64,000 bases of DNA from Candidatus Omnitrophota bacterium (GCA_963828495.1 CAWHFJ010000017.1:84342-148341), one strand, 5' to 3'; numbered from the stretch's first letter, positions 1 to 64,000 are shown. Program-made: numbers and translations. Notes: generated from the letters alone by a model not told the origin.

Positions 1-2385
1 GAGATAGTCATCCCCGAACTCACCAAAGAAATCAACGAAGGCAAAAACTTCGCCCAACTGCGCCAAGTCTACAACAGCCTCATTTTAGCCACATGGTACA
101 AAAAGAAAATCAAAGACAGCATTTTAGCGCAAGTGTATGCCAATAAAAATAAAATTAAAGGAACAGAATATACACAGAGCATTTTACCCCAAAGCCAACC
201 TGGGGGCAGTTCTGCCAGACAGAACTGCCGCCAAGCCGGCTGCCAAGCAAACGAACCAATGAATGTGAAAGCGACCCAGAGGAACGAACCTAACGATGTG
301 GAACTCATCTATCAGCATTACCTCCAAGCCTTCAAAAAAGGCGTCTATAACTACGTCAAAGAAGAAATTGATCCTCTGACACAACAACCGATACCAAGGA
401 AATATTTTTCAGGTGGAATTAGATGGGACATGGCCATGCTGACAACGACATCCGAGAAACCTGTTCAGGAAGAAGGTTTGTTAAAGGTGTCGGTTGATTT
501 TGCGATGCAATCCGGCCAAGCAAAAAGCCCATCGAATTTCTCTGAAATGCTTAAACTGGAATTTGCGAAGAAAAAGAAACTCAAGGTCCTTGATCTGGGA
601 GCAGGGAGTTCCGATTTTTTAATAAATATGAAAACAATATTAAAAAAAGCGGGCTTCGAGCCTGAACTTACGGCTGTCGATCGAGTATGGGAATGGGTTA
701 AGCCTGATCAGGGATTTGCTTTAAATAATATTCAAACGATTACCGCAGATTTAGAGGAACCCGGAGTTGAGAAAAATTGGGGGAAATTTGACCTTGTTTT
801 TTTTAATGCTCCCACAGGTTTATTTTTCCATGACATAGCCAGACTTGCCAGGCATCTTCTTAGTGAGAATGGAATATTTATTTGTAGGTTTTGGGAACAG
901 GATTCCAAGGATATAGTCAGCTATTTGATCCCTGAGCTTAAAAATGAGGGGCTTCCTTTTATCCAGTTAAATCAGGACCTCAAAAATCTGCCTGAAGGAG
1001 GGGGAAATTTTAGAGGTTTAAGACCCCCTATTATTGTTAAGACAAATGGAGCTCATTTTAGCGAGGATATATGGCCGTTGGCTTTGCGTGTCCACTTGCC
1101 GGAGAATGATTCTGTCAAACCTCCCGAGCAAGGGCATTGGATTACCACAAAGCAAGTTCAAGATTTATTATTGGGCGATCGGTTATGGCAAGAATTAGAA
1201 GAGCTGGTGAATTCTCACCAGGGAGCATTGGATGACTGGATTAGGACTAATTTAGAGGAGAATCCGGAAGGGAAAAATGGCAACCTGGAGATTTCTATAG
1301 AAAACCCGGATCCCGATAAACCTCATTTTGCCGTGTTATACAAGGGAGTGCCGATGGTCGAGGTTAAACTTGTGCTCGAGGAGGGGTTTGGAGATCTGAA
1401 TGTTGTTTACCTTAACCCGGTATTAAGAAGCAACCAATGGGGGACGCGGTTTATTCTTAAGGCCATTGATTACTTTGAAAGTCGGGGTAAGACAAACATC
1501 CGTATAGCTGTTACAGATTATGAGAAAGGATATTGGTATAACAAGATAAAATTAGAGCCAACAGCCGATAATATGTACTCTATGGATACTGTGCGTAGCA
1601 AAATTCAGGAATATTTAAATAATGAAGCAGGGGCCGGCTTGCCATCGCCTGACCGGGATCGGGCCATGCTCAGTATGGCCGAGCCGCAATTGACTAAACA
1701 GAACCCTTATGCCAACGTTTTAAGACATTTTGTTGAGCATACCACACCGGAGAGTATCACAAGATTGGAATTGCTGCATAAGTTAGGCCCGGAGATTGAA
1801 AAGAAAGTGCGGGAAATCTTAGGGAAAGATGATGAATTAAAGATTGCTGTTCTTCCGATTGGCAGTACATTAATGGGTTATGCTGGGGCCTACAGTGATG
1901 TGGAGTACACCCTGTGTATACTGGCTGGAGGTGATAAAAGATGGGAGGGCGTGTTAAGTCAATCAAATAGGAAGCAGATATTTGAAGCCGTAAATCAAAT
2001 GATTGCCAAAGAGGGAAAGGGGATACCGGTAGAAAAAGAGTTGGAAGCCGGACTGCTGCATATGCAAATTTTTGATTATTCAAACATGGATCGGATTTCC
2101 GGGCGTCTCAGCTTTGAATGGGATGTAGCGTATGCCTTCCTGCCCGCAGTTTATGGGGATAGCGTGCTCATCGATCAAATGCGTAGGCATATTTTGTCGC
2201 ATATTTACGCAAAGGATGATCCTGAATTCTCTTGGGAAATAGTGCAGGAAGAATTTAGCGACATGACAACTCCCAATCCGGCCAAAACAACCATGACCTA
2301 TGACCAGGAACGTCAATTACCGGATTTGCCGGATATGCCTGAAGAATACCAAAATAAGGCGATGAAGGGCAGAGGACCGAATTGA
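1..2385 (+). CDS. 5'-truncated large multidomain hypothetical protein (conserved N-region, class-I SAM methyltransferase-like, GNAT-like and Pol-beta-type nucleotidyltransferase-like segments)
   Basis: Frame 1 is open from base 1 (EIVIPELTKEINEGKNFAQLRQVYNSLILATWYKKK... precedes the listed Met at 133), so the gene starts left of the window. Stop is TGA 2383-2385. Motifs read from the translation: KVLDLGAGSSDF (MTase motif I), FDLVFFNAP, RSNQWGTRFILKAIDYF (GNAT-like), IGSTLMGYAGAYSDVEY (GS-x10-DxE NTase signature). Domain calls are motif-level only. Confidence 0.6.
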   Translation, partial: EIVIPELTKEINEGKNFAQLRQVYNSLILATWYKKKIKDSILAQVYANKNKIKGTEYTQSILPQSQPGGSSARQNCRQAGCQANEPMNVKATQRNEPNDVELIYQHYLQAFKKGVYNYVKEEIDPLTQQPIPRKYFSGGIRWDMAMLTTTSEKPVQEEGLLKVSVDFAMQSGQAKSPSNFSEMLKLEFAKKKKLKVLDLGAGSSDFLINMKTILKKAGFEPELTAVDRVWEWVKPDQGFALNNIQTITADLEEPGVEKNWGKFDLVFFNAPTGLFFHDIARLARHLLSENGIFICRFWEQDSKDIVSYLIPELKNEGLPFIQLNQDLKNLPEGGGNFRGLRPPIIVKTNGAHFSEDIWPLALRVHLPENDSVKPPEQGHWITTKQVQDLLLGDRLWQELEELVNSHQGALDDWIRTNLEENPEGKNGNLEISIENPDPDKPHFAVLYKGVPMVEVKLVLEEGFGDLNVVYLNPVLRSNQWGTRFILKAIDYFESRGKTNIRIAVTDYEKGYWYNKIKLEPTADNMYSMDTVRSKIQEYLNNEAGAGLPSPDRDRAMLSMAEPQLTKQNPYANVLRHFVEHTTPESITRLELLHKLGPEIEKKVREILGKDDELKIAVLPIGSTLMGYAGAYSDVEYTLCILAGGDKRWEGVLSQSNRKQIFEAVNQMIAKEGKGIPVEKELEAGLLHMQIFDYSNMDRISGRLSFEWDVAYAFLPAVYGDSVLIDQMRRHILSHIYAKDDPEFSWEIVQEEFSDMTTPNPAKTTMTYDQERQLPDLPDMPEEYQNKAMKGRGPN

Positions 2386-2401
2386 TACCCGACGTAGGGG
2401 A

Positions 2402-3058
2402 GTGTTAGCAGGGCTTCTCGCTACAGCTGCTGTTGTCGGACTATCCCCTGAGAGTTTATTTTCTCTGCCTCAGGTCAGTTCTCATTATACGCAAGAAGAT
2501 ATAAAACAAATTAATGCGTATATCGAGGGTTTCCATGTTGGTTATTACGATTTTCAAGAATATGTGACGGGTAAGGATAAAGCCAAAGCCATGGGGTTCC
2601 TTATGGGAAATGGATTTATCGATTTTTATGATCAATTACGGTATCGGATCCATGAAAAAGTCCAGGTCACTAAACAAGAGTTTATGGCTATTGAGAATGA
2701 TATTGTAAAGGAAATGGCCAAAGGCAAAAATGTGTCCCCCTATCAACAACATGGAGTAGAAGGATTTTTTACAGGCATTTGGTCTGATTATATTGTGGCT
2801 TTAGCCAATAATCAGCCGGATTTGAAAATGATTACCCATGATTTAATTTATCAAGCGAAACAGCATTCGGCCGCATTGGGCGCTATGGTCAATAAAATGA
2901 CTTTAATGATCACTCCGGCAGCGAGTGATGATTCAAGAAATGATTTTTTGAAGGCATGGGGAAAGTTTAATGAAACTTATTTTATTCCTCAAAGATATTA
3001 CGTCGATATCAGAATGCAGGGTGTAGGGGAAGAAAAACAGGCCGGGTTATTTTGCTAA
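2402..3058 (+). CDS. hypothetical protein, possibly exported (twin-arginine-like segment lies just upstream of the listed GTG start)
   Basis: 218-aa ORF in frame 2. The frame is open from 2366 and reads RAEDRIDTRRRGVLAGLLATAAVVGLSPES. I recognise no family. Confidence 0.45.
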   Translation: MLAGLLATAAVVGLSPESLFSLPQVSSHYTQEDIKQINAYIEGFHVGYYDFQEYVTGKDKAKAMGFLMGNGFIDFYDQLRYRIHEKVQVTKQEFMAIENDIVKEMAKGKNVSPYQQHGVEGFFTGIWSDYIVALANNQPDLKMITHDLIYQAKQHSAALGAMVNKMTLMITPAASDDSRNDFLKAWGKFNETYFIPQRYYVDIRMQGVGEEKQAGLFC

Positions 3059-3071
3059 TGTTTATAAAATC

Positions 3072-4914
3072 ATGGATCCCGAATGGCGTGAAGTCAATGG
3101 AACAAATGTTTTGACCATTTATGGCCGTAAAATGGATCGGGTTTATTCGGCAGGAGATTTGGGCGATAGTGTGCTGGGGCAGAGACTTGTATTTATTGAT
3201 TTGGATGCCGTTGATGGGGAAGTTAATAAAATTATGGAGACACTCAGAGGCAAGAGTCCGTACTTTTTATTCAAGGGAAAACGACGGGTGGATGCCACAA
3301 AATTAGTCAAGAGAATATTCGCCGGCATGAATAAAAATGATATCCGTGAGCAATTTTTACATGGCACGCGCGCCCATGAATTTTTTCATCAGGCACAAGA
3401 TATGCTTCAGCTTCCGTATAAAGGAACAGATTATTTTGGTTTCTCTGCCAATATCTGGAAGGAGCGGGTGGCTCCTCAAGAGAGGGAATCTTTAGACCGC
3501 GAAACCGGCGCTATGCTTGCCCAAATCATTTCAGCTAAAGACCCCGGGTTAGAATTGTTTGATATATTTAAATTTGCTTTGTCCGGGCAAAACAATGCCT
3601 ATTATTTCGGGGCTCTGTGGATCATGAACCGTCTGGATGGCAGACCGGTCGATCAGTGGACAGATGGGCAGAATTTTGATGAGCTTATTAGGCAGTTTGA
3701 GCATATATATGAAATGGGGCCTGTGGGGATAAAAAATAGAGCTCAAAAATTAATGGAGGACAATTGGTCTAAGGAATTGTTGAAAGCCGTTGAAGGTGCT
3801 GATGCTGCCATGTTTTCCACACAGCGGATTGCGGAATACAAAAGAGCTTACAACAGATTTGTTAAGAATAAAAATCCAACGTTGAGTTTTATGGATTTCG
3901 TACTCGATCGATTGGTGAGAGAATCATTGGGTAATATTAAAGTTGATAAGGTTATTTATGGCGCATCGGGAGCGGATATTACCAATGTGCTTTTAAGTAC
4001 CCAGGCCAAGACGGTTTACATGGTTTCAGCTGACCAGAATTCAATAGATTATTTAAAAAAATACATTGAAGATGATTGGGATTCAGTGGATGGTTTAAAG
4101 CAGCAACGCACGTATGCCGCATTAAAATATAGTCAAGGTTGGCAGTATTTTTTTGTTAGCGCCAGTTTGATTTGGGCATCAGGTGTTGTGGCGGAATTAA
4201 AGACGTTAGGGCTCAAGAGAGAAGATCTAACTTTTGAAACAGCAGAAGATGGCAGGCCGTCCTTAACATTTAATCTGGATTTAGGTAATGGCATAAAGGA
4301 AAAAAAGAAACATTATCTTTATCCGTGCCAATTTGCTTAATCAACCTTTGAAGGGGGAGGCTGGGGGGCAACAGATTCAACGATTTTCTGAGGTAGATTT
4401 AGGTTTGGTAGACGGATATTATGAACGGGCGAGTATGCTCCTAAGGACTGAGAGGGATTCTTATTTGCCGGCTATCATCCATCGAATTAAGCCCGGGGGG
4501 TTTGCTATTATGAATAATCGTTCATCTGCGGATAAATATCCGCGTATTATTTTAGATCATTTTGAACAAGTTAATCCGTATAAGGCCATTACATATTTAA
4601 TCCTTAAACAATTGTGGGATTTTTTAAATGGTAAATTTAATGGTTATGGTTGGAAAATGCAAGTTTTTGTTAATTATAAACCGTCAGCGGATCAGGCGAT
4701 TAAGGCAGGAGAACCGGAAAGGGGAGGGATCGACCTAACTGCTGATCATATGAATTTGCAGGTTAAAAAAGAGATGGCTTCTCAAGGAATCAAATTTCAC
4801 CTTGACCCTGCTATGATCGTACAACTGCAAAATGCCACTGGTTTTGTGCCTGTGATTATTCATGTAGAGCCGCTCAAAAGCCTTCCGGAGTTTCTGGGAT
4901 TGGCCCAAAACTAA
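3072..4914 (+). CDS. hypothetical HExxH-motif plus methyltransferase-like protein with a C-terminal GGIDL...FLGL module; frame broken at the A7 tract 4300-4306
   Basis: ORFs 3072-4340 (frame 3) and 4333-4914 (frame 1) overlap. Frame 1 is already open from 4297 (RKKRNIIFIRANLLNQPL...), so the two join across the A7 run. Motifs: TRAHEFFHQ (HExxH), VIYGASGADITNV and IKPGGFAIMNN (MTase-like), and the terminal GGIDLTADHMNLQVKK...GFVPVIIHVEPLKSLPEFLGL. Confidence 0.5.
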
Positions 4915-4948
4915 GAAAATCCCTGATTATTTTTTTATATAAAGAGAA

Positions 4949-4976
4949 TTGACATTAGAAAAATCAGAAGTAAGAT
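4949..4976 (+). promoter_or_regulatory. sigma70-like promoter (TTGACA-16-TAAGAT)
   Basis: TTGACA at 4949-4954 and TAAGAT at 4971-4976 with 16-nt spacing. A GAGGGAG Shine-Dalgarno precedes the ATG at 5025. Confidence 0.45.
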
Positions 4977-5024
4977 AAAAGTATAAAGATTTTTATTAAC
5001 AATTTTATCGATTGAGGGAGAAAT

Positions 5025-5531
5025 ATGAAAAATCTGGTTCTGGTGCTGGTGGTGGTGTTTGCTCTAACGACATTCATTGGGTGTAACAAAAAGAAAAAAG
5101 ATGAAGCTGCTGAACTCAACGGAGTGGCCACGGAAAATGTCGTGTCAGTGAGCGATAATGCCATCCAGAATGCAGATACTAATGCTGTTCCTGTGGTTGT
5201 GGAAAATGCGGCTGCTGCGGCGAATGAAGCGACTGAGCCTGCGATGAACGCTGATATCGGCAAACCCACACCCAAGTTGATCCAGCAGGCTTTGAAGAAT
5301 GCCGGCCTTTATGACGGTAAAGTTGACGGTAATATCGGGCCAAGGACCAAAAAAGCCATCGAAGCTTTTCAGTCCCAGAATGGCCTGAAAGCGGATGGTA
5401 AGGTGGGCCGCAAAACATGGAAACTTTTATCCGCTTATTTGAATAAAAGCGCGGAAGTGACTAATCCGTCCGCCGATACCCAAGCGGTTGCAATAAACCA
5501 ACAAGAAATAAGGCGAATCAAGAGTCAATAA
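5025..5531 (+). CDS. lipoprotein with a peptidoglycan-binding domain (PG_binding_1-like)
   Basis: Signal peptide with lipobox LTTFIGC. C-terminal LIQQALKNAGLYDGKVDGNIGPRTKKAIEAFQSQNGLKADGKVGRKTW matches the PG-binding repeat pattern. Confidence 0.7.
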   Translation: MKNLVLVLVVVFALTTFIGCNKKKKDEAAELNGVATENVVSVSDNAIQNADTNAVPVVVENAAAAANEATEPAMNADIGKPTPKLIQQALKNAGLYDGKVDGNIGPRTKKAIEAFQSQNGLKADGKVGRKTWKLLSAYLNKSAEVTNPSADTQAVAINQQEIRRIKSQ

Positions 5532-5566
5532 GAAAAAGTTGTGCAACAAGAAGGAGGAACAAGGTA

Positions 5567-5769
5567 ATGGCCAAAGGTAAAGTCAAATGGTTCAATAATC
5601 AAAAAGGTTATGGTTTTATCACCCCGAAAACGGTAAAGATGTTTTTGTCCACCACACCGCAATCAAATCCGACGGTTACAGAACCTTGGAAGAAGGCCAG
5701 GAAGTTGAATTTGATATTCAACAAGGCCCCAAGGGCGAGCAAGCCGTGAACGTTACGAAGGCCACATAG
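5567..5769 (+). CDS. cspA: cold-shock protein (CspA family); frame broken in the C4 tract 5622-5625
   Basis: [20 protein letters not shown] in frame 2 continues in frame 1 as [47 protein letters not shown]. One extra C would restore a 67-aa Csp. A hairpin terminator follows. Confidence 0.85.
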
Positions 5770-5784
5770 AATCAAAGACATTCC

Positions 5785-5814
5785 AGGCCTGGTTGTAAAA
5801 CCAGGCCTATTTTT
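5785..5814 (+). terminator. rho-independent terminator after csp
   Basis: AGGCCTGGTT-GTAA-AACCAGGCCT forms a perfect 10-bp stem and is followed by ATTTTTGG. Confidence 0.8.
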
Positions 5815-5867
5815 GGAATTTTTTATGCCCAATGAACTGATACGAGAAAAATTAGAGCTCCCTGATC

Positions 5868-6439
5868 ATGCGAGAAAATACTTCTGCATTCCTGCTGTGC
5901 GCCATGTTCAGGGGAATTGATGGCAGCGATGTTAGCCTCCGGCATAGATTTTACCATTTTTTTATAATCCTAATATCTATCCTCGTCAAGAATATGATAT
6001 ACGCAAGAATGAAAATAGGCGTTATGCCGAAAAATACAATGTGCCTTTTGTGGATGCGGATTATGATACCTCAAACTGGTTGTCCCGTGTCAAAGGCCTG
6101 GAATTGGAACCTGAGCGTAGTGCGCGCTGCAGTATCTGCTTTGATGTGCGTTTTGAACGCACGGCCCTTTATGCCCATGAGCATGATTTTAAGGTGATCA
6201 CTTCGTCCTTAGGCATGTCACGCTGGAAAGATAGAGACCAGGTCAATAGTTGCGGTGTTCGTGCCGCTTCACGCTATGAAAATATGGTTTACTGGACGTA
6301 TAACTGGCGCAAATATGGCGGATCAGCGCGCATGGTTGAGATCGCCAAACGGGAAGGATTTTACCGGCAGCAATATTGCGGATGTGTTTATTCCTTAAGA
6401 AATGCCAATTTGAGGGGGAATTATGGTCCTTACACCTAG
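5868..6439 (+). CDS. queH: epoxyqueuosine reductase QueH (DUF208); two frame breaks
   Basis: MRE (frame 3) continues as [28 protein letters not shown] (frame 1), then [35 protein letters not shown]...QQYCGCVYS (frame 2). The breaks fall at the A4 run 5875-5878 and the T7 run 5957-5963. Confidence 0.8.
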
Positions 6440-6869
6440 AAAAGTTACGGTCTCCGCCGGCGGAGTTGTCATTAACCCGCAGGGACAAGTCTTGCTTGTC
6501 AATCAAAGGGGGACATCGTGGTCTTTACCTAAAGGGCATGTGGAGGCCGGTGAAGACCCCCTCCAAACGGCACAGCGTGAAATACTGGAAGAATCAGGAG
6601 TGACGAGCGTAAGCTTGGTACAAGTCTTAGGCGTGTATGGCCGTTATAAAATAGGCAAAAATGGCGGCGAAGACAAGAACGAATGGAAGATCATCCTCAT
6701 CTTTTTATTTAAAACCAAACAAAATGATGTGCACCCTCGAGACCCTTTGACCCCCCAAGCACGATGGAGCCATCCTGATGAAGTGGAAAGTGTATTAACC
6801 CACCCTAAAGACAAAGCTTTTTACCGGAGCATTCGTTGCCGGATCAATACAGGAGCCCTACCGGCATAA
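6423..6869 (+). CDS. NUDIX hydrolase
   Basis: Nudix box [23 protein letters not shown]. Confidence 0.8.
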
Positions 6870-6878
6870 ATATTTTTA

Positions 6879-6887
6879 TGCTATACT
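6879..6887 (+). promoter_or_regulatory. possible extended -10 promoter element (TGcTATACT)
   Basis: TGCTATACT sits 26 nt upstream of the ATG at 6913. There is no good -35. Confidence 0.3.
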
Positions 6888-6912
6888 TATATATAGAGAT
6901 AGGGCTTGAGCT

Positions 6913-7401
6913 ATGATTAAATATTTATTAAATATTTTGGTTGTATTTTTGATGTTATCTTCTTTTTGTTTTGCCAACAATGATGATAATGGTTTACAAA
7001 AAGAATACGGCACTGATCTGACCAAGGCGCCTTTTTTCTTACGTTTTAGTTTTTACAATACATATAAAAAAGATTGGGAAGAGTCTTCTTATGCGGAACG
7101 TAAAACTTTTATAATCAAGTACCAAAAAGATTTAATCGCAGATCAAAAAAAAGAACAAGCTGAAGCCAGGGCTAAAGCTCAAAAAGAAAGAGAACTTCTG
7201 CGTAAGAAGAGAGAAGAGGCGCGAGCAGAAAGACAAAGACTAAAAGACGAAGAAGCAGCAAAGAAAGCCGAAGAAAAAGCTGAAAAAGAACGCCAAAAAG
7301 CATTTGAGGAAACTGTGCATGAGGAGCAAAAAGCTTTGCAAAGCGAGCGACAACAATTCGAGCAAGAACGCCAACAACAACAGCAGCAGGGTCAACAATA
7401 A
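6913..7401 (+). CDS. secreted K/E/R/Q-rich coiled-coil protein
   Basis: N-terminal signal peptide (MIKYLLNILVVFLMLSSFCFA) followed by a low-complexity charged helix ending in a poly-Q run. Confidence 0.55.
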   Translation: MIKYLLNILVVFLMLSSFCFANNDDNGLQKEYGTDLTKAPFFLRFSFYNTYKKDWEESSYAERKTFIIKYQKDLIADQKKEQAEARAKAQKERELLRKKREEARAERQRLKDEEAAKKAEEKAEKERQKAFEETVHEEQKALQSERQQFEQERQQQQQQGQQ

Positions 7402-7435
7402 TCAGTGGCTGATTAAAAGCCCATCTTATTTCCCC

Positions 7436-8092
7436 ATGCATTTTAAAATTTCAACAGTTATTTTTGATATGGACGGTGTTATTACAGACACCATGCCGTA
7501 TCATTTTCGTGCCTGGAAATCTGTTTTGGCCTGTGCAGGCGTAGGCGTCAGCCATGAGGACATCTATAAACGGGAAGGGCAAAAGGGCATTGACAGCGTG
7601 CGCGAAATTTTTATGGAAAAAGGTAAAATGTATACGGATGCTGTAGGCCGCCAAATCCTTCAAAAAAAAGAAAAATTATTTAAAAGAATTTTTAAACGTA
7701 AATTTATTGCCGGGAGCAGGGCCTTTATTAAAAAACTTAAAGCCCGAGGGTTTAGACTGGCATTGGTCACCGGGACATCCCGCAGTGAAGCGCAAAAACT
7801 TCTGCCTCTTGATTTATGGCATTGTTTTGACGTAACAGTTTGCGGTTGTGATGTGCAAAATGGCAAGCCTCATCCGGAACCGTATTTAAAAGTCCTCCAA
7901 AAATTACATATAAAACCTGGCGATGCCATTGTGTTAGAAAATGCCCCATTAGGTATCCGTTCGGCCCAATCAGCAGGACTTGGGTGTCTGGCCTTGGAAA
8001 CATCCCTGCCGCGTGTTTTTTTAAAAGAGGCGGATGCGGTATTCTCTTCTTTTAAAGCCATGCAATCCAAGGTCACTTTTATCAAAACATAA
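7436..8092 (+). CDS. HAD-IA hydrolase, beta-phosphoglucomutase family
   Basis: VIFDMDGVITDT (DxDG motif I), LVTGTSR (motif II) and a GKPHPEPY segment. I chose ATG 7436 rather than the 7304 extension, which overlaps the previous gene. Confidence 0.75.
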   Translation: MHFKISTVIFDMDGVITDTMPYHFRAWKSVLACAGVGVSHEDIYKREGQKGIDSVREIFMEKGKMYTDAVGRQILQKKEKLFKRIFKRKFIAGSRAFIKKLKARGFRLALVTGTSRSEAQKLLPLDLWHCFDVTVCGCDVQNGKPHPEPYLKVLQKLHIKPGDAIVLENAPLGIRSAQSAGLGCLALETSLPRVFLKEADAVFSSFKAMQSKVTFIKT

Positions 8093-8094
8093 CA

Positions 8095-10004: not shown

Positions 10005-10097
10005 TCAACTGTACAATATACTCAATTATTAATCATTTAACATGACCCGGCTGGAGCCATAGGGGGCAATAGTAGGTCAACAGAAGGAGAGATTCGT

Positions 10098-10388: not shown

Positions 10389-10416
10389 TAAAAAATAAGA
10401 AATAAACAGGTAAATA

Positions 10417-10467
10417 GGGACGTCTCCCATTTATTTAGATAAATGGAAGATGTCCTTATTTATTTTG
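10417..10467 (+). terminator. rho-independent terminator
   Basis: An 18-position stem (10417-10434 with 10439-10456; 17 paired including 2 G-U, 1 mismatch) followed by TATTTATTTTG. Confidence 0.6.
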
Positions 10468-11114: not shown

Positions 11115-11120
11115 TTAATT

Positions 11121-12161
11121 ATGTTGACTGGGATGCGCCTGCAATGCCCTCTGTGTCCGCGTTGCTGCACGCTGAGTGAAGGCCAGCGGGGATTTTGTTT
11201 TGTGCGGCAGAATATCAGCGGACAAATAGTACTGACCACCTATGGACATTCCAGCGGGTTCTGCCTTGATCCCGTTGAAAAGAAACCGCTTAATCATTTT
11301 CTTCCGGGAACGGCAACTTTATCCTTTGGTACAGCCGGGTGCAATTTAGGATGTAAATTCTGCCAAAATTGGGACATCAGTAAATCCAAAGAATTCGACC
11401 GCCTGACCGAGGAAGCCAGCCCGCAGGACATTGCCCAAGCCGCCCATCGATTAAATGTCAAAAGCATTGCCTTTACTTATAATGATCCGGTCATTTTTGC
11501 CGAATATGCTATAGATACGGCGATAGAATGTCATAAACTGGGGGTCAAAACCATCGCCGTGACCGCCGGCTATATAACCCCGCAGGCCAGGGGAGAATTC
11601 TTCGCGCATATGGATGCCGCGAATGTGGACCTTAAAGGATTTTCAGAAGATTTCTATCATAAAATCACTTTAGGCCATTTACAGCCGGTTTTGGACACCC
11701 TGGTCTATTTAAAAAAAGAAACAAAGGTGTGGTTTGAAATCACTAATTTGATGATTCCGGGTCTTAATGACAAAAAATTTGAAATTGAAGATATGTGCCA
11801 ATGGATTGCCGATTATCTGGGGGTTGACGTACCTTTGCATTTTACGGCTTTTCATCCGGATTACAAAATGATGGATTATCCGCCAACACCTATAGAAACT
11901 CTGCAAAAGGCCCGTGATAGTGCATGATCCAAAGGGCTTCATTATGTTTATACCGGCAATGTGCATGACATGACGAATGCCAGCACCTGGTGCCCGTCTT
12001 GCAAAAAATTATTAATTCAACGTGATTGGTTTGTCCTAGGAGAATATAATTTAAAGGACAACCACTGTGGTTTTTGCGGATACCGCATCGCAGGCGTTTT
12101 TGAGAAAACCCCCGGCAATTGGGGAGGCAAAAGAGTCCCGGTTGTGATCAATCAGATATGA
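11121..12161 (+). CDS. amrS: AmmeMemoRadiSam-system radical SAM enzyme, interrupted by an in-frame TGA at 11925-11927
   Basis: CPLCPRCCTLSEGQRGFCFVRQN, GTAGCNLGCKFCQNWDISKS (CxxxCxxC), and a C-terminal CPSC...CGFCG. ORFs 11121-11927 and 11961-12161 share frame 3 and are separated only by the TGA. Confidence 0.75.
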
Positions 12162-22167: not shown

Positions 22168-23311
22168 ATGAAACGCAATTTGTTGTTAACTCCCGGCCCA
22201 ACTCAAGTACCTGCCAATCTGTGCGCGGCTTTAGGTAAGCCTATCATCCATCACCGCACGCCGCAATTTCAAAACAATATCAAACAGGTAGTGGAAGGTT
22301 TAAAAGATATCTTTCAGACTACCAATGACATTTATATTTTAACCTCTTCAGGTTCCGGCGGCATGGAAGCGGCCGTATCAAACCTGCTTTCCCCCAATGA
22401 TAAGGCCATTGCGGTCGATGGCGGAAAATTCGGCGAGCGCTGGGTGGAACTTTGCCAAACCTTTAAGGCTAATACGATTGTGTATAAGGTGGAATGGGGC
22501 AAAGCTCCCACTGCGGCAGAGATTAAATCGTTATTAAATGCCCATCCTGACACCAAGGCAGTATTTATCACCTTGGCAGAAACCTCGACAGGCGTGACTC
22601 CTGATGTCAAAGCTATCGGAGAGGTTGTTAAAAACACCCAGGCTGTTTTAGTGGTCGACGCGGTGTCGGGTCTGGCTGTTCAGGAAATTAAAACCGACGA
22701 GTGGCACTGCGATGTGGTGGTATCCGCCTCCCATAAGGGCCTGATGCTGCCGCCGGGCTTAAGTTTTGTCAGCGCCTCACCCAAAGCCATTGATTTGATC
22801 AATAAAAGCACAAACCCGCGTTACTATTTTGATTTGCGCGAATCCAAAAAGGCCATGGAAAAAATTGACACTCCTTTTACGCCGGCCATTGGCGTCCTTA
22901 TCGCTTTGGTGGACTCGCATCGAGATGATTAAAAAAGAGGGTCTTACCAATATGTTTGCCCGTTACGCGCTTTTAGCCCGTGCGGTACGTGCCGGCTGCA
23001 AGGCCATCGGCCTGGAATTATTTCCTGACCTTAGCTGTGCAACCAATGTGCTGACGGCCGTTAAGGTGCCTGCTAACATCGACGGAGAAAAGTTGACTAA
23101 AACCATGCGCGATACCTATGGCATTACTTTTGCCGGCGGACAAGACCTCCTTAAAGGTAAAGTCATCCGCATGGCGCATATGGGGGCCCTGGATGAATAT
23201 GATATTCTTACAGGACTGGCTTGCTTAGAAAAAGTCTTGCATCAAATGGGGCATAAATTTGAACTGGGCAGCGCATTAAGTGCCGCTCAAAAAGTTCTCA
23301 ACACAAATTGA
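22168..23311 (+). CDS. class V aminotransferase (serine-pyruvate / phosphoserine aminotransferase-like); one frame break near 22918
   Basis: LLTPGPTQVP...SHKGLMLPPG, then ...TPAIGVLIALVDS (frame 1) continues as IEMIKKEGL... (frame 2). Adjacent to serA. Confidence 0.75.
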
Positions 23312-36056: not shown

Positions 36057-38538
36057 ATGCATATAGCGGATTTAGCCAAAGAGTTAAAAATTACCGAAAG
36101 CTATGTTACAAAGAAAATCAAATCATTAAAACTGCGTTCTAAAGACAACGGCGAAATTACGGCTATTGTCGAAATGATTCTACGCGACGCTTTGGCGGAT
36201 GAAGGCATAGGCCAGCGTGTGGTCGAGGAACCCCCGCCGACTAAAAAATCCGTCAAAAAGACTACTACCCCTAAACCCAAGCCTACTGCGGCCAAGCCTA
36301 AAATAAAAACTGAAGAAGACAAAAAAGAGAAAAAAAAGCCGTCTGTCTCCAGAAAGAAAACAGCCCTGGAACCTGACGATGAGCCGCTGCCTAAAAAAGA
36401 GGCTCCCAAATCAATTTTACCCAAATCGGAAACTCCGAAAATTGAATCCGTGCCTCCCAGAAGATCGAACCCGTGCTTCCCAAGATTGAACCCGTGCATC
36501 CCAAAATTGAATCCGCGCTTCCCAAGATTGAACCCGTGCCTCCTAAACCGGTGATGCCGCAAATAGATGTTACCAAAATAGATATCCCCAAAGATATTCC
36601 GCCGCTGGAACCGCTCAAAAAGAAACTCCGTTATGATGAACCTTTTATATCGGTCAAGCCTTTAGCTAAAAAACGCAAACGGTCTTTTGAGGATACCGGC
36701 GGCTTAGGGCATGGACGGGACCATAAACCTTCTGCGTCTATTGCCGGTGCGGTCATTCCTGAAATACAACCTGCCGGACCGCTGGTAGATATTGAATTAC
36801 CTATTCCCATCAGCGTTAAAGATTTCGCCGTACATATCAATCAGAAGATGAATGTTGTGCTAAAGAAACTTCTGAACATGGGCGTATTTGCCAATATTAA
36901 CCAGAATCTGGGTGAAGAACTTGTCGGAAAATTAGCCAACTCTTTCGGCCTTAATGTCATTAAAAGCAAAACTCAGGAAGAAGAGCTCATCGATGTCCGC
37001 CAGCACAAAAAGATGATCCGGCTTCTTTAAAACCACGGGCACCGGTCGTCACCTTTATGGGCCATGTGGACCATGGTAAAACATCCCTGCTGGATAGTAT
37101 CCGTTCTGCCAAGGTCGCTGAAAGTGAACATGGGGGTATTACCCAGCATATCGGCGCTTATTTGGTAGCGACAGCCAACGGCAAAATTACATTTTTGGAT
37201 ACACCGGGTCATGAAGCTTTTACAGCCATGCGTGCCCGAGGTGCTCATATTACGGACATCGTGGTATTGGTCGTGGCTGCGGATGACGGTGTTATGCCTC
37301 AGACCCAGGAAGCCATTGCTCATGCCCGCGCGGCTAATGTGCCGATTGTCGTAGCCCTTAATAAAATAGATAAAAAAACCGCTGATCCTGACCGGGTTAA
37401 AAAACAGCTTTCCGAGCTTGATCTGATGTCAGAAGATTGGGGAGGGAAAATAGGGGTTGTGGAGGTATCTGCGCTGACAGGGAAGGGCATTGAAAAACTT
37501 CTGGACCGTATTTTACTGGAGGCGGAAATATTGGAATTAAAAGCCAATCCCGATAAAAAGGCATTAGGGATTGTCATTGAGGCCCATATGAGCAAGGGCA
37601 AGGGTGCCATTGCCTCTTTGATTGTGCAAAGCGGTACGTTGAACTTGTCGGATGCTCTTGTCATAGGCCCTCTGCATTGCAAAGTCAAGGCCATGTTTGA
37701 TGATCAGGGACGGCCTATCAAAGAAGCCGGACCGTCGACGCCTGTGGAAATTTTGGGGCTTTCCGAAGTCCCTGCAGCGGGTGAAATTTTTTACGCGGTA
37801 GAAGATGAAAAGACAGCCAAAGAAATCGCGGAGAACCGCCAGGAAAGATTAAAAAATGAGAAGCTTTCGGGCACGGCTAAAGTTTCTTTAGAAGAATTGT
37901 ATTCGCAAATTCAGCAAGGGGAAATCAAAGAACTGCGGGTCGTGATAAAAGGCGACGTGCAAGGCTCTCTGGAAGCGCTCAAAGAGTCACTGAGCAAAAT
38001 CCCCTCTGATGAAGTGAAATTACGTTTTATTCATACGGCGGTGGGGGATGTTAATGCTTCTGACGTGGTCTTGGCGCATGCCTCTAATGCCATTATCATT
38101 GCTTTTCAAGTGGGCGTTGATGATAAAGCCCGGCAGGAATTAGATAAAAATCCCGTAGATGTACGGGAGTACCGTATCATTTATGATGCTGTTGAAGATT
38201 TAAGAAAAGCCTTGGAGGGGTTACTCGCCCCCAAACTCAAGCGTCATTTCATCGGTCGTGTGGAAGTACGCAATGTGTTTAACTTAAGCCGTTCGGGGGT
38301 CGTAGCCGGTTGTTTTGTTCAAAAGGGCAAGGTCCGCAATAAAATTCAGGTTGAAGTTTTGCGCAACGGCGATGTTGTCCATACCGGGCATATCAGCACT
38401 TTGAAACGGTTTAAGGACGATGCCAAAGAAGTCACTGAAGGCTTTGAATGCGGGATTACAGTGTCCAATTTTGATACCATTGCTGTCGGGGACATCATTG
38501 AAGCGTTTGATATCGAATCCATTGCGCGCAAGCTATAA
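36057..38538 (+). CDS. infB: translation initiation factor IF-2; two frame breaks (36459-36460 and the A5 run 37007-37011)
   Basis: The N-terminal Lys/Pro-rich region (frame 3) continues through PKIEPVx repeats into frame 2, then [28 protein letters not shown]...DTPGHEAF...NKID in frame 1. Confidence 0.9.
36435..36541 (+). repeat. five tandem 21-nt (PKIE[PS][VA]x) repeats inside infB; unit 2 is 23 nt
   Basis: Units at 36435, 36456, 36479, 36500 and 36521. Unit 2 reads CCCAGAAGATCGAACCCGTGCTT, against CCCAAGATTGAACCCGTGCAT in its neighbours. Confidence 0.85.
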
Positions 38539-54623: not shown

Positions 54624-54640
54624 TTGAAATAAGTTGCTTG

Positions 54641-54680
54641 ATACGGCTCCGTTTAAAAAAACGGAGCCGTATTATTTTGA
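54641..54680 (+). terminator. rho-independent terminator
   Basis: A perfect 14-bp stem (ATACGGCTCCGTTT / AAACGGAGCCGTAT) with an A4 loop, then TATTTTG. Confidence 0.85.
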
Positions 54681-54695
54681 CCGTTGAACCTTTTC

Positions 54696-54724
54696 TTGAT
54701 AAATTCGGCGATTAGGTATATATT
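54696..54724 (+). promoter_or_regulatory. sigma70-like promoter (TTGATA-17-TATATT) directly upstream of nadA
   Basis: Hexamers at 54696-54701 and 54719-54724. The -10 ends 9 nt before the ATG at 54734. Confidence 0.5.
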
Positions 54725-54733
54725 TATTAACCT

Positions 54734-55756: not shown

Positions 55757-55783
55757 TAGCGGGGTTAGATGCCTTTTGGTGAC

Positions 55784-56041
55784 TTATTTATTAATATCAA
55801 GAGATTGAATAGACTTGCCCAAATCCTCCAGCTGGCCTATAAACACGCATTGACTGATATTAGAATCATACAAATAAATTTTGCCGTTGCTCTGATCAAA
55901 AAAACCAAAACGGTCGCCCGATGTGGCAAAAGGAACGACCCCCGAAAAACTTTTACCGCTGGCTTTGCTTTGTGTCGCCATCAAAAGTCCGCAACTTAAA
56001 ACAGCAATAACAATTAACAGTAAAGAAGCTTTTTTATTCAT
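55784..56041 (-). CDS. small secreted hypothetical protein (the only minus-strand gene called)
   Basis: Signal peptide MNKKASLLLIVIAVLSCGLLMATQSKA, a GGGGG Shine-Dalgarno-like run, and a strong minus-strand promoter upstream. Confidence 0.5.
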   Translation of the reverse strand: MNKKASLLLIVIAVLSCGLLMATQSKASGKSFSGVVPFATSGDRFGFFDQSNGKIYLYDSNISQCVFIGQLEDLGKSIQSLDINK

Positions 56042-56059
56042 AGATTTCCCCCTCGTTGA

Positions 56060-56068
56060 TGGTATAAT
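56060..56068 (+). promoter_or_regulatory. possible extended -10 element (TGgTATAAT) for the oxidoreductase gene
   Basis: TGGTATAAT at 56060-56068. The -35 is weak. Confidence 0.35.
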
Positions 56069-56076
56069 TTTCCCTA

Positions 56077-56106
56077 ATTATACATGAAGGCAACGCTCAA
56101 TTTCAA
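56077..56106 (-). promoter_or_regulatory. sigma70-like promoter on the minus strand (TTGAAA-18-TATAAT)
   Basis: The reverse complement reads TTGAAA (56106-56101), 18 nt, TATAAT (56082-56077), upstream of the ATG at 56041. Confidence 0.5.
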
Positions 56107-56131
56107 AAAATAATGGCGAAGGGACTATTGA

Positions 56132-57325
56132 ATGAAAAAGTATGACTTTTTAATTATCGGTTCAGGCATCATCGGCTTGACACTCGCGCACGCCATCCAA
56201 AAACGTAAGCCCCAGGCCCGTATTTTAGTTTTAGATAAAGAAGCTGGGGAGGCTCAGCATGCTTCCGGCCGCAACAGCGGTGTTTTACACGCGGGTTTTT
56301 ATTATACGGCAGATAGTCTCAAAGCCAAGTTTACCGTTGACGGCAGCCGTGCCATGAAGGCCTATGTGAGATCCAAAAACCTGGCCATTAATGAATGCGG
56401 CAAATTAGTCGTGGCCCAAAATGAACATGAGTTAAAACAGTTAGACGAGCTTTTGGCCCGCGGCCAACACAATGGTTCCAATGTCCGTCTCATTAATGAA
56501 GCAGAAGTCCTGGAAATAGCCCCCAATGTCAAAACTTTCAAACGGGCCCTGTATTCTCCCAACACCGCCAGTGTAGACCCCCAAGAGGTCTGTCGTGTTC
56601 TTAAAGAAGATTTACTTCAAGCGGGTGTGACATTTTCTTTTAATACAAAATATTTAGGCCGCAGGGGGGATATTGTCAAAACCAATCAAGGCGATTTCCA
56701 GGCCGACAAAATCATTAATTGTGCCGGGCTTTATGCGGACCGTGTCGCTGCAGATTTTGGTTTCGGCTTAAAATACACCATGATCCCTTTCAAAGGTCTG
56801 TATTTAAAATATACCAAGAACACAACCGACATCAATATCAACGTTTATCCGGTGCCTAATTTAAATAATCCCTTTCTAGGCGTTCACTTCACGAAAACCG
56901 TGACAGGGGCAATTAAAATCGGTCCCACGGCCATTCCGGCATTCTGGCGGGAAAATTATAATTTACATCATGGATTTTCTGTTAATGAACTTGCGGAAAT
57001 CCTTTTTTTCGAATCCCAATTATATTGGAGTAATGCGTTTAATTTCCGTTTGCTGGCCCATGAAGAAATACATAAATACCACAGGCCCTATTTTGTTTCC
57101 CTGGCCGCAGCCATGGTCAAATCCATTGACCCCAAAGGTTTTACCGAATGGACCAAGCCCGGGATCAGGGCTCAGTTACTGGACAAAAAAACGCTGAGTC
57201 TTGTCCAGGATTTTGTGATAGAGGCAGATCGCAAAAGCGTCCATGTCCTTAATGCCGTATCTCCGGCGTTTACCTGTGCGTTCCCGTTTTCCCAATACGT
57301 GGTTGACCAGTATGTACTCATTTAA
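56132..57325 (+). CDS. FAD-dependent oxidoreductase, L-2-hydroxyglutarate oxidase (LhgO)-like
   Basis: YDFLIIGSGIIGLTLA (GxGxxG) and GRNSGVLHAGFYY. Confidence 0.7.
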   Translation: MKKYDFLIIGSGIIGLTLAHAIQKRKPQARILVLDKEAGEAQHASGRNSGVLHAGFYYTADSLKAKFTVDGSRAMKAYVRSKNLAINECGKLVVAQNEHELKQLDELLARGQHNGSNVRLINEAEVLEIAPNVKTFKRALYSPNTASVDPQEVCRVLKEDLLQAGVTFSFNTKYLGRRGDIVKTNQGDFQADKIINCAGLYADRVAADFGFGLKYTMIPFKGLYLKYTKNTTDININVYPVPNLNNPFLGVHFTKTVTGAIKIGPTAIPAFWRENYNLHHGFSVNELAEILFFESQLYWSNAFNFRLLAHEEIHKYHRPYFVSLAAAMVKSIDPKGFTEWTKPGIRAQLLDKKTLSLVQDFVIEADRKSVHVLNAVSPAFTCAFPFSQYVVDQYVLI

Positions 57326-58703
57326 AATTGCTTGCCGTTCGAGCCCCCTGGCTTGTTGCCAAGTCGATGAAGTCATTCAAAGCCTAAAAACTAAAGGCAT
57401 TGCGGTCAATTATGAAATCCTTAAATACGCAACTGCGGGTGACAAGGATAAGACCACACCATTAACGGCAAGCCCTGATAATTTTTTTACCGATGCCATT
57501 GATCAAGCCTTGCTGAATGGCAAGGCTGACATAGCCGTACACAGCGCCAAAGACCTGCCGCAAAATTGCCCCGAGGGTTTAGAAATCTTTGCCTTAACTC
57601 AATGCCTTGATAATAAAGACGCCTGGGTGGGACGCAAGTCCTGGAGCCAATTAGGACCCCAGCCCCAAGTCGGCACCAGCAGCCTTTTGCGTCAACAACA
57701 AATTCTGCAATTACGTCCGGATGTCCGTATCGTGCCTATACGCGGCAGCATCGCTGAGCGTCTAGCGTTGGTTAAGACAGGCCAAGTTGACGGTATTGTA
57801 GTGGCTGTCTGCGCGCTGAAACGCCTCAAACTTGGAAGGCAGATCAAAGATATTTTTCCCTGGGAAGGGCAGCCTCTGCAAGGGCAATTGGCTGTGGTAG
57901 GCCGCAAAAATGATCAGGAATTAAGAAATTTATTTAGTATTATTGATGTGCGCCGCGCCAAAATACTTTTGCATTGCGGTACGCACCCGGAAATGTATAA
58001 CCATTTGGGTCAAATTATCCATTGGCCTATGATTGACATCAAGCCCGTAGCCTTCAATGGGCCTTGCCAAAAACAACTCCTGCAAGCCTTGGAAATGGCA
58101 GACATCATTATATTCACCAGCGGGTTTGCCGTTGAACATTTTTTCCATGTTATTGCGAAGCCTACTTCCAGTGTCATTGCGAGCGACGGTTCTTCCAGTG
58201 TCATTGCGAGCGACGGTTCTTCCAGTGTCATTGCGAGCGAAGCGAAGCAATCTCTTAAAGAACGATTTAAAGACAAAATCTTTGCCGTCATAGGCCAACA
58301 AACTAAGAGAGCATTACAAAAATTCAATATTGAAGCCCTCATTGTTCCCCAGGAAGAAACAGCCCAAGGACTTTGTCAAGCTATAACCAAGCATATGAAC
58401 GTAGAGGGTCGACATATTTTGTTGCCACGCTCATCAGTGCCTAATCCGTTTTTAAAAGAGGCTTTATCTACTCTCGGCGCCATCGTCACAGAAATCACTG
58501 TGTACGCAAATACCAAGCCTGCCCAACGTCCTTTACCGGACTTGAATATTACGGGAGTCATTTTTACAAGCCCCTCAACAGTGCGGAATTTTTTAATAGA
58601 TTATGCTACAATACCCGAACATTGGCACATCCTGGCCCGTGGTCCGGTGACTTTAAAAGTTTTACAAGACAAAGGGTATCCTCATGCCACATCGTTATCG
58701 TAG
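57312..58703 (+). CDS. fusion of porphobilinogen deaminase (HemC domains 1-2 only) with uroporphyrinogen-III synthase (HemD)
   Basis: HemC-like: FKIACRSSPLA...ADIAVHSAKDLP...GTSSLLRQ...RGSIAERL...PLQGQLAV. This runs straight into HemD-like sequence (KILLHCGTHPEMY...IIIFTSGFAV...GVIFTSPSTV). Confidence 0.75.
   Translation: MYSFKIACRSSPLACCQVDEVIQSLKTKGIAVNYEILKYATAGDKDKTTPLTASPDNFFTDAIDQALLNGKADIAVHSAKDLPQNCPEGLEIFALTQCLDNKDAWVGRKSWSQLGPQPQVGTSSLLRQQQILQLRPDVRIVPIRGSIAERLALVKTGQVDGIVVAVCALKRLKLGRQIKDIFPWEGQPLQGQLAVVGRKNDQELRNLFSIIDVRRAKILLHCGTHPEMYNHLGQIIHWPMIDIKPVAFNGPCQKQLLQALEMADIIIFTSGFAVEHFFHVIAKPTSSVIASDGSSSVIASDGSSSVIASEAKQSLKERFKDKIFAVIGQQTKRALQKFNIEALIVPQEETAQGLCQAITKHMNVEGRHILLPRSSVPNPFLKEALSTLGAIVTEITVYANTKPAQRPLPDLNITGVIFTSPSTVRNFLIDYATIPEHWHILARGPVTLKVLQDKGYPHATSLS
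58166..58254 (+). repeat. in-frame 27-nt tandem repeat (2.8 units) ending in a GTCATTGCGAGCGAAGCGAAGCAATCTC element, inside the hemD-like half
   Basis: TTCCAGTGTCATTGCGAGCGACGGTTC occurs at 58166 and 58193. The third unit (58220) switches after ...GCGAGCGA to AGCGAAGCAATCTC. Translation: SSVIASDGS SSVIASDGS SSVIASEAKQSL. Confidence 0.9.
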
Positions 58704-63082: not shown

Positions 63083-63093
63083 GAGATTAAAAA

Positions 63094-64000
63094 ATGAAAC
63101 GACACAATTTACATGCGGGGTTGGTCCTCATAGGAGGATTATTATTAAGCACCGGCGTTTATGCACAGACAGCCCAAGACTATTTTCACAATGGCAACGC
63201 CTATAACAGGCAAGGCAAATTATCTCAAGCCATTGTTGAGTTTACCAAAGCCATTGCCATCAATCCCAACTTTGCCAAGGCCTATAATGACCGGGGGGTC
63301 GCTTATGCTAAGCAAGGCCAATTGGCCAAAGCCATCGCTGACTACACCAAGGCCATTGACATCAATCCTAAAGATGTAGCGGCCTATAACAACCGCGGCA
63401 ATGCCTACAACATGCAGGGCAATCTACCCAAAGCCATTGCTGATTTTACCAAAGCTATCCAAATAAAGCCTGACTATGCAGGGGCCTATAACAACCGCGG
63501 GAATACCTACAATATGCAAGCCAACTGGCCTCAAGCCATTGCTGATTTTTCTAAAGCCATTGACCTAAACCCTAATGTGGCCGGAGCCTATCATAACCGG
63601 GGGAATGTCTACTACAAGCAAGGCAATTGGCCTCAAGCCATTGCTGATTTTACCAAAGCCATTACTTTAAAACCCAATTTAAAAGAGGCCTATATAAGTC
63701 GGGGGCTTGTCTATTACAGGCAAGGCATGTGGCCTCAAGCCATTTTTGACTTTACCAAAGCCATTGAAATAAACCCTAATATGGCAGAGGCTTATGGCAA
63801 CCGAGGCAATGCCTTCTTCAAGGAAGGTAATTTATCCCAAGCTATTGCCGACTATACGAGGGTCATTGCCATTAATCCTCTCTATGCAAGGATTTATAAC
63901 AACCGTGGGCTGGCCTATTATAGTGCCAAAAACTACGCCAAAGCTTGGGCCGATGTGCATCAAGCAGAAAAATTAGGGAGTCCTGTTAACGGTGACTTTA
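63094..64000 (+). CDS. secreted TPR-repeat protein, 3'-truncated by the window edge
   Basis: Absent from the ORF track because no stop occurs before 64000. ATG 63094, signal peptide ending VYA-Q, then at least 8 consecutive 34-aa TPR units (A.YNNRGNAY...G....AIADFTKAI.I.P). Confidence 0.8.
   Translation, partial: MKRHNLHAGLVLIGGLLLSTGVYAQTAQDYFHNGNAYNRQGKLSQAIVEFTKAIAINPNFAKAYNDRGVAYAKQGQLAKAIADYTKAIDINPKDVAAYNNRGNAYNMQGNLPKAIADFTKAIQIKPDYAGAYNNRGNTYNMQANWPQAIADFSKAIDLNPNVAGAYHNRGNVYYKQGNWPQAIADFTKAITLKPNLKEAYISRGLVYYRQGMWPQAIFDFTKAIEINPNMAEAYGNRGNAFFKEGNLSQAIADYTRVIAINPLYARIYNNRGLAYYSAKNYAKAWADVHQAEKLGSPVNGDF

Follow-up and report, generated by a model that had tools for sequence, protein, structure and literature searches.

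Genome decay in host-restricted bacteria is exemplified by Mycobacterium leprae and Sodalis glossinidius. In Buchnera and Blochmannia, transcriptional slippage at poly(A) tracts rescues frameshifted genes, and programmed frameshifts are found in prfB and dnaX. Frame breaks can also enter a sequence during its assembly. Indels in long-read consensus sequences lead to frameshifts below roughly 40x depth (PMC9262707), and the truncated or split open reading frames (ORFs) that consensus indels leave behind are the problem targeted by the IDEEL test and by proovframe (proovframe preprint, 10.1101/2021.08.23.457338). For metagenomes, the assembler metaFlye merges strains at 98-99% identity, and indels and frameshifts result when each strain is covered at low depth (PMC8302730).

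Here we describe frame breaks in a 64-kb stretch of DNA (the window, meaning the whole stretch analysed) that is part of a metagenome-derived contig of 232,791 bp, public in NCBI/ENA. Like the decaying genomes of M. leprae and Sodalis, the window has many frameshifted genes in one region; unlike them, it is hit in essential translation and envelope genes, its genes bear the marks of purifying selection, and conspecifics have the same genes intact. Slippage in Buchnera and Blochmannia and the frameshifts of prfB and dnaX resemble the window in that the frame changes lie in genes that need to be expressed, but the window's sites mostly lack long homopolymers or slippery motifs and are not conserved in relatives. 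Residual indels of long-read assemblies (nanopore, PacBio CLR) are likewise private, 1-2 nt long and apt to split conserved genes into adjacent ORFs in different frames; they are also alike in their density of about 0.6/kb, in their absence from accurate assemblies of the organism, and in that a second noisy assembly is hit elsewhere (PMC9262707; 10.1101/2021.08.23.457338). The window departs from typical long-read errors in that its indels are mostly not changes of homopolymer length and, instead of being evenly spread, occur only in islands where strains diverge. A strain-collapsed metagenome consensus, as produced by metaFlye, similarly alternates between error-free stretches and divergent-haplotype islands rich in errors (PMC8302730); for the window, two strains would have to co-occur in the source sample, and a simple model in which both alleles were kept did not fit.

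Results

About 40 small indels, located by DNA alignment, HMM matches and tblastn/blastn, break the frame of sixteen genes in the window; one further gene carries a stop codon. The references for the alignments were an outgroup contig, L023, and short Logan contigs (k-mer assemblies) of six ENA runs, chosen for encoding proteins that match the window's intact proteins exactly. The runs are ERR10755936, ERR11523654, ERR11523656, ERR11748453, ERR11571142 and ERR11630400. An exact-protein look-up of four ORFs returned no reference, leaving 17.4-19.7, 21.9-23.3 and 58.2-64 kb uncovered; these matches were likely missed through start-codon choice or private variants. The region at 46.04-46.72 kb has no near-identity reference, and the events in rnhB were called by using RnhB from L023, L024 and L030 (JGI contigs) as tblastn queries and by blastn against L023, with positions accurate to within a few nucleotides. 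The sites are as follows (+1 and -1 denote nucleotides gained or lost by the window).

2367, + strand: giant 1872-aa ORF; +1 (extra G); L007, the sole reference, reads through
3033, + strand: giant 1872-aa ORF; +1 (A5 vs A4); L007
4300, + strand: giant 1872-aa ORF; +1 (A7 vs A6); L007 only
5621, + strand: csp (cold-shock protein); -1 (C4 vs C5); L007, L008 and L009 all against the window
5784 and 5809, + strand: intergenic, csp-queH; -1 and -3 (in a T-run), respectively; alignment
5870, 5955 and 5962, + strand: queH; -1 each; alignment to near-identical contigs
8090..8092, + strand: HAD phosphatase; CAA to TAA, about 5 aa lost; C in 4/4 references
8198, + strand: nadK; -1; 4/4 references against the window
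8665, + strand: nadK; -1; alignment
11925..11927, + strand: AmmeMemoRadiSam radical SAM gene; in-frame TGA; L008 is the sole covering reference
14865, + strand: intergenic; +1 (G6 vs G5); alignment
22915..22918, + strand: class-V aminotransferase; net +1; abutting HMM coordinates, DNA reference absent
26931, + strand: intergenic, directly after the purA stop codon; +1; 3/3 references against the window
28633, 28682 and 28687, + strand: uppS; +1 at 28633, then a compensated pair (-1 at 28682, +1 at 28687); 4/4 references against the window
29088, 29207 and 29412, + strand: cdsA; +1 each; 4/4 references, from four runs
30038, + strand: dxr; -1; 3/3 references
31677 and 31680, + strand: rseP; two +1 events 3 nt apart, net +2; 3/3 references
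34111, 34197 and 34257, + strand: proS (ProRS); +1, +1 and -1, respectively; 3/3 references
36459..36460, + strand: infB; +2 (AG); absent from L002, L003 and the outgroup L023
37007..37008, + strand: infB; +2 (A5 vs A3); alignment to near-identical contigs and L023
41264, + strand: ruvB; +1, ten nt 5' of the stop codon; absent from L002, L003, L004 and L023
45402 and 45539, + strand: trmD; +1 each; L015 and L023
46124, 46371, 46405-6, 46632 and 46667, + strand: rnhB; five frame-breaking events, +1 each except +2 at 46405-6 (then -3 at 46410)
47166, + strand: intergenic; -1; L012 and L023
53390, + strand: zf-HC2 anti-sigma factor gene; +1; L016 and L017

Each of the breaks listed in the first-pass annotation is present within about 10 nt of the coordinate given there, and about ten further frame-breaking events lie inside genes, including those at 2367, 3033 and 41264 and hidden events in uppS and rnhB; three of the sites listed previously are two events apiece. 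The positions 2367 and 3033 had been taken for gene boundaries, a reading that fails in L007, where a single ORF of 1872 aa, broken in the window by these two events and the one at 4300, runs through continuously. Both queH breaks that had been placed at 5876 and 5960 exist, the second as two -1 events (5955 and 5962) rather than one. The rnhB events at about 46371 and 46405 form a compensated pair absent from the earlier list. The CAA to TAA change at 8090 and the intergenic indels at 5784, 5809, 14865, 26931 and 47166 are likewise new. Insertion at 41264, a new site, rewrites the final three codons of ruvB and lengthens the ORF to 351 aa; it is also the one exception among the intervals that had been described as reading cleanly (12.2-22.9, 23.4-28.3, 37.1-45.4 and 53.5-64 kb).

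Insertions outnumber deletions among in-gene events by 24 to 9, in agreement with the insertion bias seen earlier. Of the eight breaks previously tallied as net -1, three are +2 (the two 2-nt insertions in infB and the adjacent pair of 1-nt insertions in rseP). Direction varies by region, with deletions only at 5.6-8.7 kb and mostly insertions elsewhere. Over the 48.2 kb that can be compared with the references there are about 0.64 frame-breaking indels/kb, a rate far above that of accurate bacterial sequence, and normally essential genes are struck several times each. A hand count of events gave 28 whose length is not a multiple of three, with 24 coding and four intergenic, a split that is about what coding density alone would give, taking that density as an estimate rather than a computed value; the indels thus bear no trace of selection.

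Homopolymers account for few of the sites, and most insertions do not alter the length of one. No 3-mer or 4-mer, GATC-like methylation motifs among those tested, was significantly enriched around the indels after multiple-testing correction. The site contexts and the k-mer test thus bear out the first-pass view that homopolymers are few and a common motif is lacking, which argues against a programmed mechanism. Scans of the whole window with Rfam (gathering threshold) and for tRNAs were empty.

The independent assemblies hold the affected genes in one piece. At 98.9-100% DNA identity to the window, the contigs of the other runs have intact csp, queH (205 aa in L007, L008 and L009), nadK (286 aa in L008 and L009), uppS (239 aa), cdsA (276 aa), dxr (382 aa), rseP (372 aa), proS (413/414 aa), infB (825 aa), ruvB, trmD (230 aa) and anti-sigma factor (449 aa in L016 and L017) genes. 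At each indel, all covering runs agree with one another against the window, up to 4/4. The window's indels are private to it, being absent from all six other runs. The outgroup L023, at about 91% DNA identity, is without every window-private coding indel, and its remaining coding indels relative to the window have lengths of 9, 3, 3, 3 and 3, each a multiple of three. Orthologues at 70-100% identity are single uninterrupted ORFs with no shift site conserved. In HMM matches to the fragments, the halves of UppS match profile positions 17-118 and 119-251, those of TrmD 2-160 and 159-210, and the aminotransferase ORF pair positions 3-256 and 256-385 of 395 (NF045640).

One of the references is itself noisy. 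L007 (ENA, contig_188633) differs by 39 SNPs and 12 indels at 7.5-9.1 kb, where the window matches the other runs; the private indels of L007 lie at 7.6-10.4 kb, and at the window's own sites it sides with the references. That a second noisy assembly of the same population is broken at other positions supports a consensus-error reading. Searching the contigs of GTDB genomes with the MutY-like protein gave only relatives at 35% identity, a literature search by run and sample accessions gave nothing relevant, and an assembly of the window's exact strain was not found among the assemblies compared.

Substitutions private to the window fall in the same places as the indels. Within intact frames, 82 are synonymous, 54 nonsynonymous and three create stops; the synonymous to nonsynonymous ratio is 8:3 in cdsA, 8:4 in infB and 7:4 in proS, and the changes in trmD are also mostly synonymous. 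The window has the outgroup allele at 37 of 86 polarisable private substitutions. These substitutions look genuine, judging from their pattern, and the synonymous bias and the outgroup alleles together indicate that the genes evolved as functional in their unbroken frame, the one now disrupted by the indels. Of the indels, 90% have one or more private SNPs within 100 bp, and the mean number of private SNPs near an indel is 2.5 against 0.74 expected, a value that none of 5000 permutations reached. Outside the islands, kilobases are identical to the other assemblies, with zero differences. Within the islands, on these comparisons, the window's strain is to all appearances a genuinely distinct haplotype, so that the clustering noted previously is not only real but coincides with islands of genuine strain divergence. 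Some SNP islands, as at 41.5-42.9 kb, have no indels.

We considered retention of both SNP alleles in the consensus as the source of the insertions and found it unsupported; of the 16 SNPs that this model implies, 4 are synonymous, where the null gives 5.1 on average. A rejected candidate concerns the in-frame TGA that had been reported at 11925, which is indeed present and sits within the SNP island at 11.35-11.93 kb. Were it a selenocysteine codon, Cys or Sec would be expected in orthologues, and the near-identical L008 has CGA (Arg).

Discussion

We conclude that the frame breaks are very probably consensus errors in the deposited contig, arising where strains differ, and not decay or recoding, because the independent assemblies of six other runs, together with more distant relatives, have the affected genes intact, because the indels occur in the window alone and ignore the multiple-of-three rule of this lineage's natural coding indels, and because the surrounding private substitutions show purifying selection in the unbroken frame. 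Local consensus error had been the default explanation from the outset, and it is now supported by comparison with independent assemblies, not by reads. The same comparisons show that in the organism itself the genes concerned, among them uppS, cdsA, dxr, rseP, proS, infB, trmD and rnhB, are unbroken and subject to purifying selection.

We propose that noisy reads, in all likelihood long ones, underlie the consensus. Stretches in which the population is uniform would yield an essentially perfect consensus, and islands in which the contig's strain differs would retain 1-2-nt insertions and deletions, either because fewer reads represented the chosen haplotype there or because polishing failed as reads disagreed. 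Such residual indels would be random with respect to genes, shattering whichever gene happens to lie in the island. We note that non-homopolymer insertions are atypical of a polished nanopore consensus.

Genuine recent pseudogenisation, in a strain from a decaying lineage that is, for example, newly host-restricted or a hypermutator, is very unlikely. The strain appears to be a real, distinct haplotype in the very islands that hold the indels, which could formally be its own; the lesions, however, are found in none of the six other runs, and L007 is affected in the same way but elsewhere. Moreover, decay would have to account for 16 frame-broken genes and one nonsense mutation, with infB, proS, trmD, dxr, cdsA and uppS among the casualties and several of them hit repeatedly. 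Private changes in the broken genes are biased towards synonymous ones, which is not the dN/dS near 1 of relaxed selection; given this bias, decay must be extremely recent, yet there is about one indel for every five SNPs. It is also extremely unlikely that the indels are real in another sense, belonging to a natural strain with islands imported by recombination, in which mutagenic repair generated many frameshifts in essential genes that are tolerated or corrected in expression.

We regard as very low the probability of large-scale recoding, in which real frameshifts would be mended in expression by ribosomal frameshifting or transcriptional slippage. Slippage is known at A/T tracts in endosymbionts, and a few of the window's sites do lie in A/T runs (A7 at 4300, A5 at 37007 and T7 at 5962); most, however, have neither a homopolymer nor a slippery sequence, no k-mer is enriched among them, +1 and +2 events are mixed with -1 events, and relatives that are near-identical or 70-91% identical have uninterrupted frames without a conserved site. 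Finally, the references rather than the window might be wrong, as chimeric k-mer assemblies or contigs of another species, and the Logan contigs are indeed short and break at 21.9-23.3 and 46.04-46.72 kb, both affected regions, but there is next to no chance of this, since errors destroy ORFs and do not restore them, and the references, whose long ORFs are unbroken and match HMMs over the full length, agree across four to six runs and with the outgroup.

Consensus error on this scale is a quality flag for a public 232.8-kb contig that has, in places, about 0.6 frame-breaking indels/kb. For 17 of the approximately 70 genes in the window (a hand count of + strand ORFs), gene calls, pseudogene counts, completeness estimates and derived proteins are unreliable. 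For the polishing of metagenomes, real strain divergence marks the islands where residual errors are to be expected. A cluster of frameshifts is not, on its own, evidence of genome decay. The frame breaks described here are very probably not a real biological feature; the organism's genes are intact.

Gene content of the window

The window is a housekeeping gene region of ~44% GC, with all substantial ORFs on the + strand. The genes are listed here in order, divided into six blocks for convenience.

Blocks of genes in the window (+ strand)
Block 1: giant ORF, csp, queH, NUDIX gene, HAD phosphatase, nadK, mutY
Block 2: AmmeMemoRadiSam radical SAM gene
Block 3: kdsB, kdsA, kdsD, kdsC, lptC/A, lptB, short trigger-factor-like protein (312 aa), clpP
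Block 4: aminotransferase, serA, purA, uppS, cdsA, dxr, rseP
Block 5: TadA-like ATPase, proS, rimP, nusA, infB, trpS, scpA, ruvB, spoIID, queA, tgt, trmD, rplS, rnhB
Block 6: ECF sigma/anti-sigma pair, nadA, hemC/D, hemB, hemL

Scans of the window for tRNA genes and Rfam families returned no match. Two genes are apparent fusions with full-length domain coverage, LptC-LptA-like (18911-19774, 287 aa) and HemC-HemD (57243-58703, 486 aa). In the region 32165-34681, a TadA/CpaF-like secretion ATPase gene (424 aa) lies between rseP and proS, and ProRS is of the short form (413 aa); the long bacterial model matched it in two stretches, indicating that the editing insertion domain is absent. The proS-rimP spacer (34679-34709) is hypervariable among runs, with 6-nt indels and several SNPs, and the position of the proS stop varies among runs, giving 413 or 414 aa. 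Within the covered parts of the window, the sole minus-strand gene called on reference contigs (L016 and L017) is an 85-aa ORF at 55784-56041 (-), for which we found no Pfam match.

Frame breaks are private to the window

Exact-sequence look-up of the window's intact proteins retrieved identical proteins on independently assembled contigs of six ENA runs (ERR10755936, ERR11523654, ERR11523656, ERR11748453, ERR11571142 and ERR11630400) and two ENA assemblies. These reference contigs, 98.9-100% identical to the window where they align, jointly cover positions 1-17406, 19741-21926, 23331-46038 and 46724-58194. With Tgt as query, JGI metagenomes yielded 29 further related loci; the JGI contig L023, our outgroup, has ~91% DNA identity over 34.4-48.2 kb, and several other relatives have 70-83%. 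On the reference contigs, queH (205 aa), nadK (286 aa), uppS (239 aa), cdsA (276 aa), dxr (382 aa), rseP (372 aa), the ProRS gene (413/414 aa), infB (825 aa), ruvB (334 aa), trmD (230 aa) and the anti-sigma gene (449 aa) are each a single full-length ORF. The first-pass annotation had proposed about 24 frame breaks, and base-level alignment revealed a private indel, absent from the compared contigs, at each of these sites that has reference coverage, with every covering run concordant against the window (up to 4/4).

Private indels at the proposed break sites (+ strand)
5621: csp
5870, 5955, 5962: queH
8198, 8665: nadK
28633: uppS
29088, 29207, 29412: cdsA
30038: dxr
31677 with 31680: rseP
34111, 34197, 34257: proS
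36459-60, 37007-8: infB
45402, 45539: trmD
53390: anti-sigma gene

The aminotransferase and rnhB regions lack a near-identical reference, and here the proposed breaks are borne out at the protein level: at ~22916, two ORFs match adjoining parts of a single 395-position profile (3-256 and 256-385), and RnhB of three JGI relatives aligns to the window in frames 2, 3, 1 and 2 in succession. The same three proteins expose an extra short out-of-frame excursion at 46371-46405 in which no stop codon is met. The TGA noted in frame at 11925 is present, and the single covering reference has CGA (Arg). Stretches described as clean that have no DNA reference showed full-length Pfam coverage.

The edges of the reference gaps at 21926-23331 and 46038-46724 are contig ends in several independent runs, and the genes at the gaps are the frameshifted aminotransferase and rnhB, the most heavily damaged gene. 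They are probably strain-variable hot spots that break k-mer assemblies too.

Alignment also revealed events that had been missed: indels at 2367 and 3033, which together with 4300 break one ORF of 1872 aa, uninterrupted in L007, a second noisy assembly of the same population; an indel at 41264 that rewrites the end of ruvB; a compensated pair at 28682/28687 in uppS; CAA>TAA at 8090; and five intergenic indels. The tally is ~33 frame-breaking events inside 16 genes (24 insertions and 9 deletions), with a nonsense codon in a seventeenth gene. The giant ORF occupies 1899-7517 of L007, and window positions 1-4914 hold its C-terminal ~1640 codons in four pieces; a Pfam search of it found no domain, only a sub-threshold methyltransferase match at residues 427-531. 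All ten events at 5600-8700 are deletions and insertions predominate from 22.9 kb onward (22900-53400), a regional difference that may reflect strand-specific read errors. Purines make up 17/22 single inserted bases (10 G, 7 A).

Private substitutions are real and surround the indels

Scored in the intact reference frame, private coding SNPs comprise 82 synonymous, 54 nonsynonymous and 3 stop-creating changes; random error would give ~25% synonymous. When polarised with L023, 37 of 86 private SNPs carry the outgroup allele; random error would produce such a match no more than a few per cent of the time. The window is therefore a genuine, distinct haplotype whose private substitutions are real, and purifying selection acted on its genes in the very frames that the indels disrupt. 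For ninety per cent of indels, one or more private SNPs lie no further than 100 bp away, and the mean number within that distance is 2.5, as compared to 0.74 expected (0/5000 permutations reached 2.5). Outside these islands of private SNPs, kilobases of the window are without one difference from other assemblies.

Two dense islands, 11355-13290 (~35 private SNPs) and 41480-42860 (~22), have no frame-breaking indel. Their SNPs are mostly synonymous; several alleles in the second are those of the outgroup, and the first lies outside outgroup coverage. Both look like a recombination mosaic in a natural population. Relative to the compared contig L008, the AmmeMemoRadiSam radical SAM gene has an in-frame 6-nt insertion close to its start (GGGATG, 11130-11135), probably a genuine length polymorphism.

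The indels do not resemble natural variation

Among 28 events relative to run-derived contigs with lengths that are not multiples of three, 24 are coding and 4 intergenic, a split that we estimate to be close to the expectation from coding density alone. Essential genes sustain repeated breaks (three each in cdsA and proS, two in infB and five in rnhB). An internal control is given by L023: every coding indel between it and the window, private ones excepted, has a length divisible by three (9, 3, 3, 3, 3). L007 (ENA assembly ERZ25039473, record contig_188633) has an island of its own: at 7.5-9.1 kb in window coordinates, its HAD, nadK and mutY genes are split by differences that number 39 SNPs and 12 indels (window 7500-9200 corresponds to about 10100-11800 of L007). 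There the window has the sequence of the other runs, and at the window's own indel sites L007 does. The indels are private to this assembly, blind to selection and confined to strain-variable islands, and the population carries intact versions of the affected genes.

Origin of the frame breaks

Judged from these comparisons, the frame breaks are almost certainly consensus errors rather than a biological feature. Local consensus error had been the default explanation from the outset; it is upheld and can be sharpened, since the errors concentrate where strains truly diverge. Failures of this kind are documented: avoiding frameshifts from indels in a long-read consensus takes ~40x depth or short-read polishing (PMC9262707), and strains at 98-99% identity are collapsed by metaFlye, with ORF-breaking indels arising when the depth of each strain is low (PMC8302730). 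We propose that the contig consensus was built from noisy reads and that, within islands, the chosen haplotype may have had less effective read support, leaving residual indels; alternatively, polishing may have been confounded by strain disagreement. A more specific model, in which each insertion is a SNP site with both alleles kept, did not fit the data.

Genuine decay, programmed recoding and faulty references are, even taken together, very improbable. Decay, in which the breaks are real lesions, would mean that infB, proS, trmD, dxr, cdsA and uppS had acquired many of them at once, yet selection on the substitutions is not relaxed and six other runs have no trace of the lesions. Recoding of the frameshifts would be expected to leave motifs and conservation, and neither is seen; no programmed mechanism is visible, no motif is common to the indel sites, and most of them fall outside homopolymers. 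Faulty references, with the window correct, are excluded, since the reference ORFs are intact, full-length and mutually concordant. Attributing the frame breaks to consensus error serves to flag the quality of this public contig and to caution users about the places in which metagenome consensus sequences accumulate errors.
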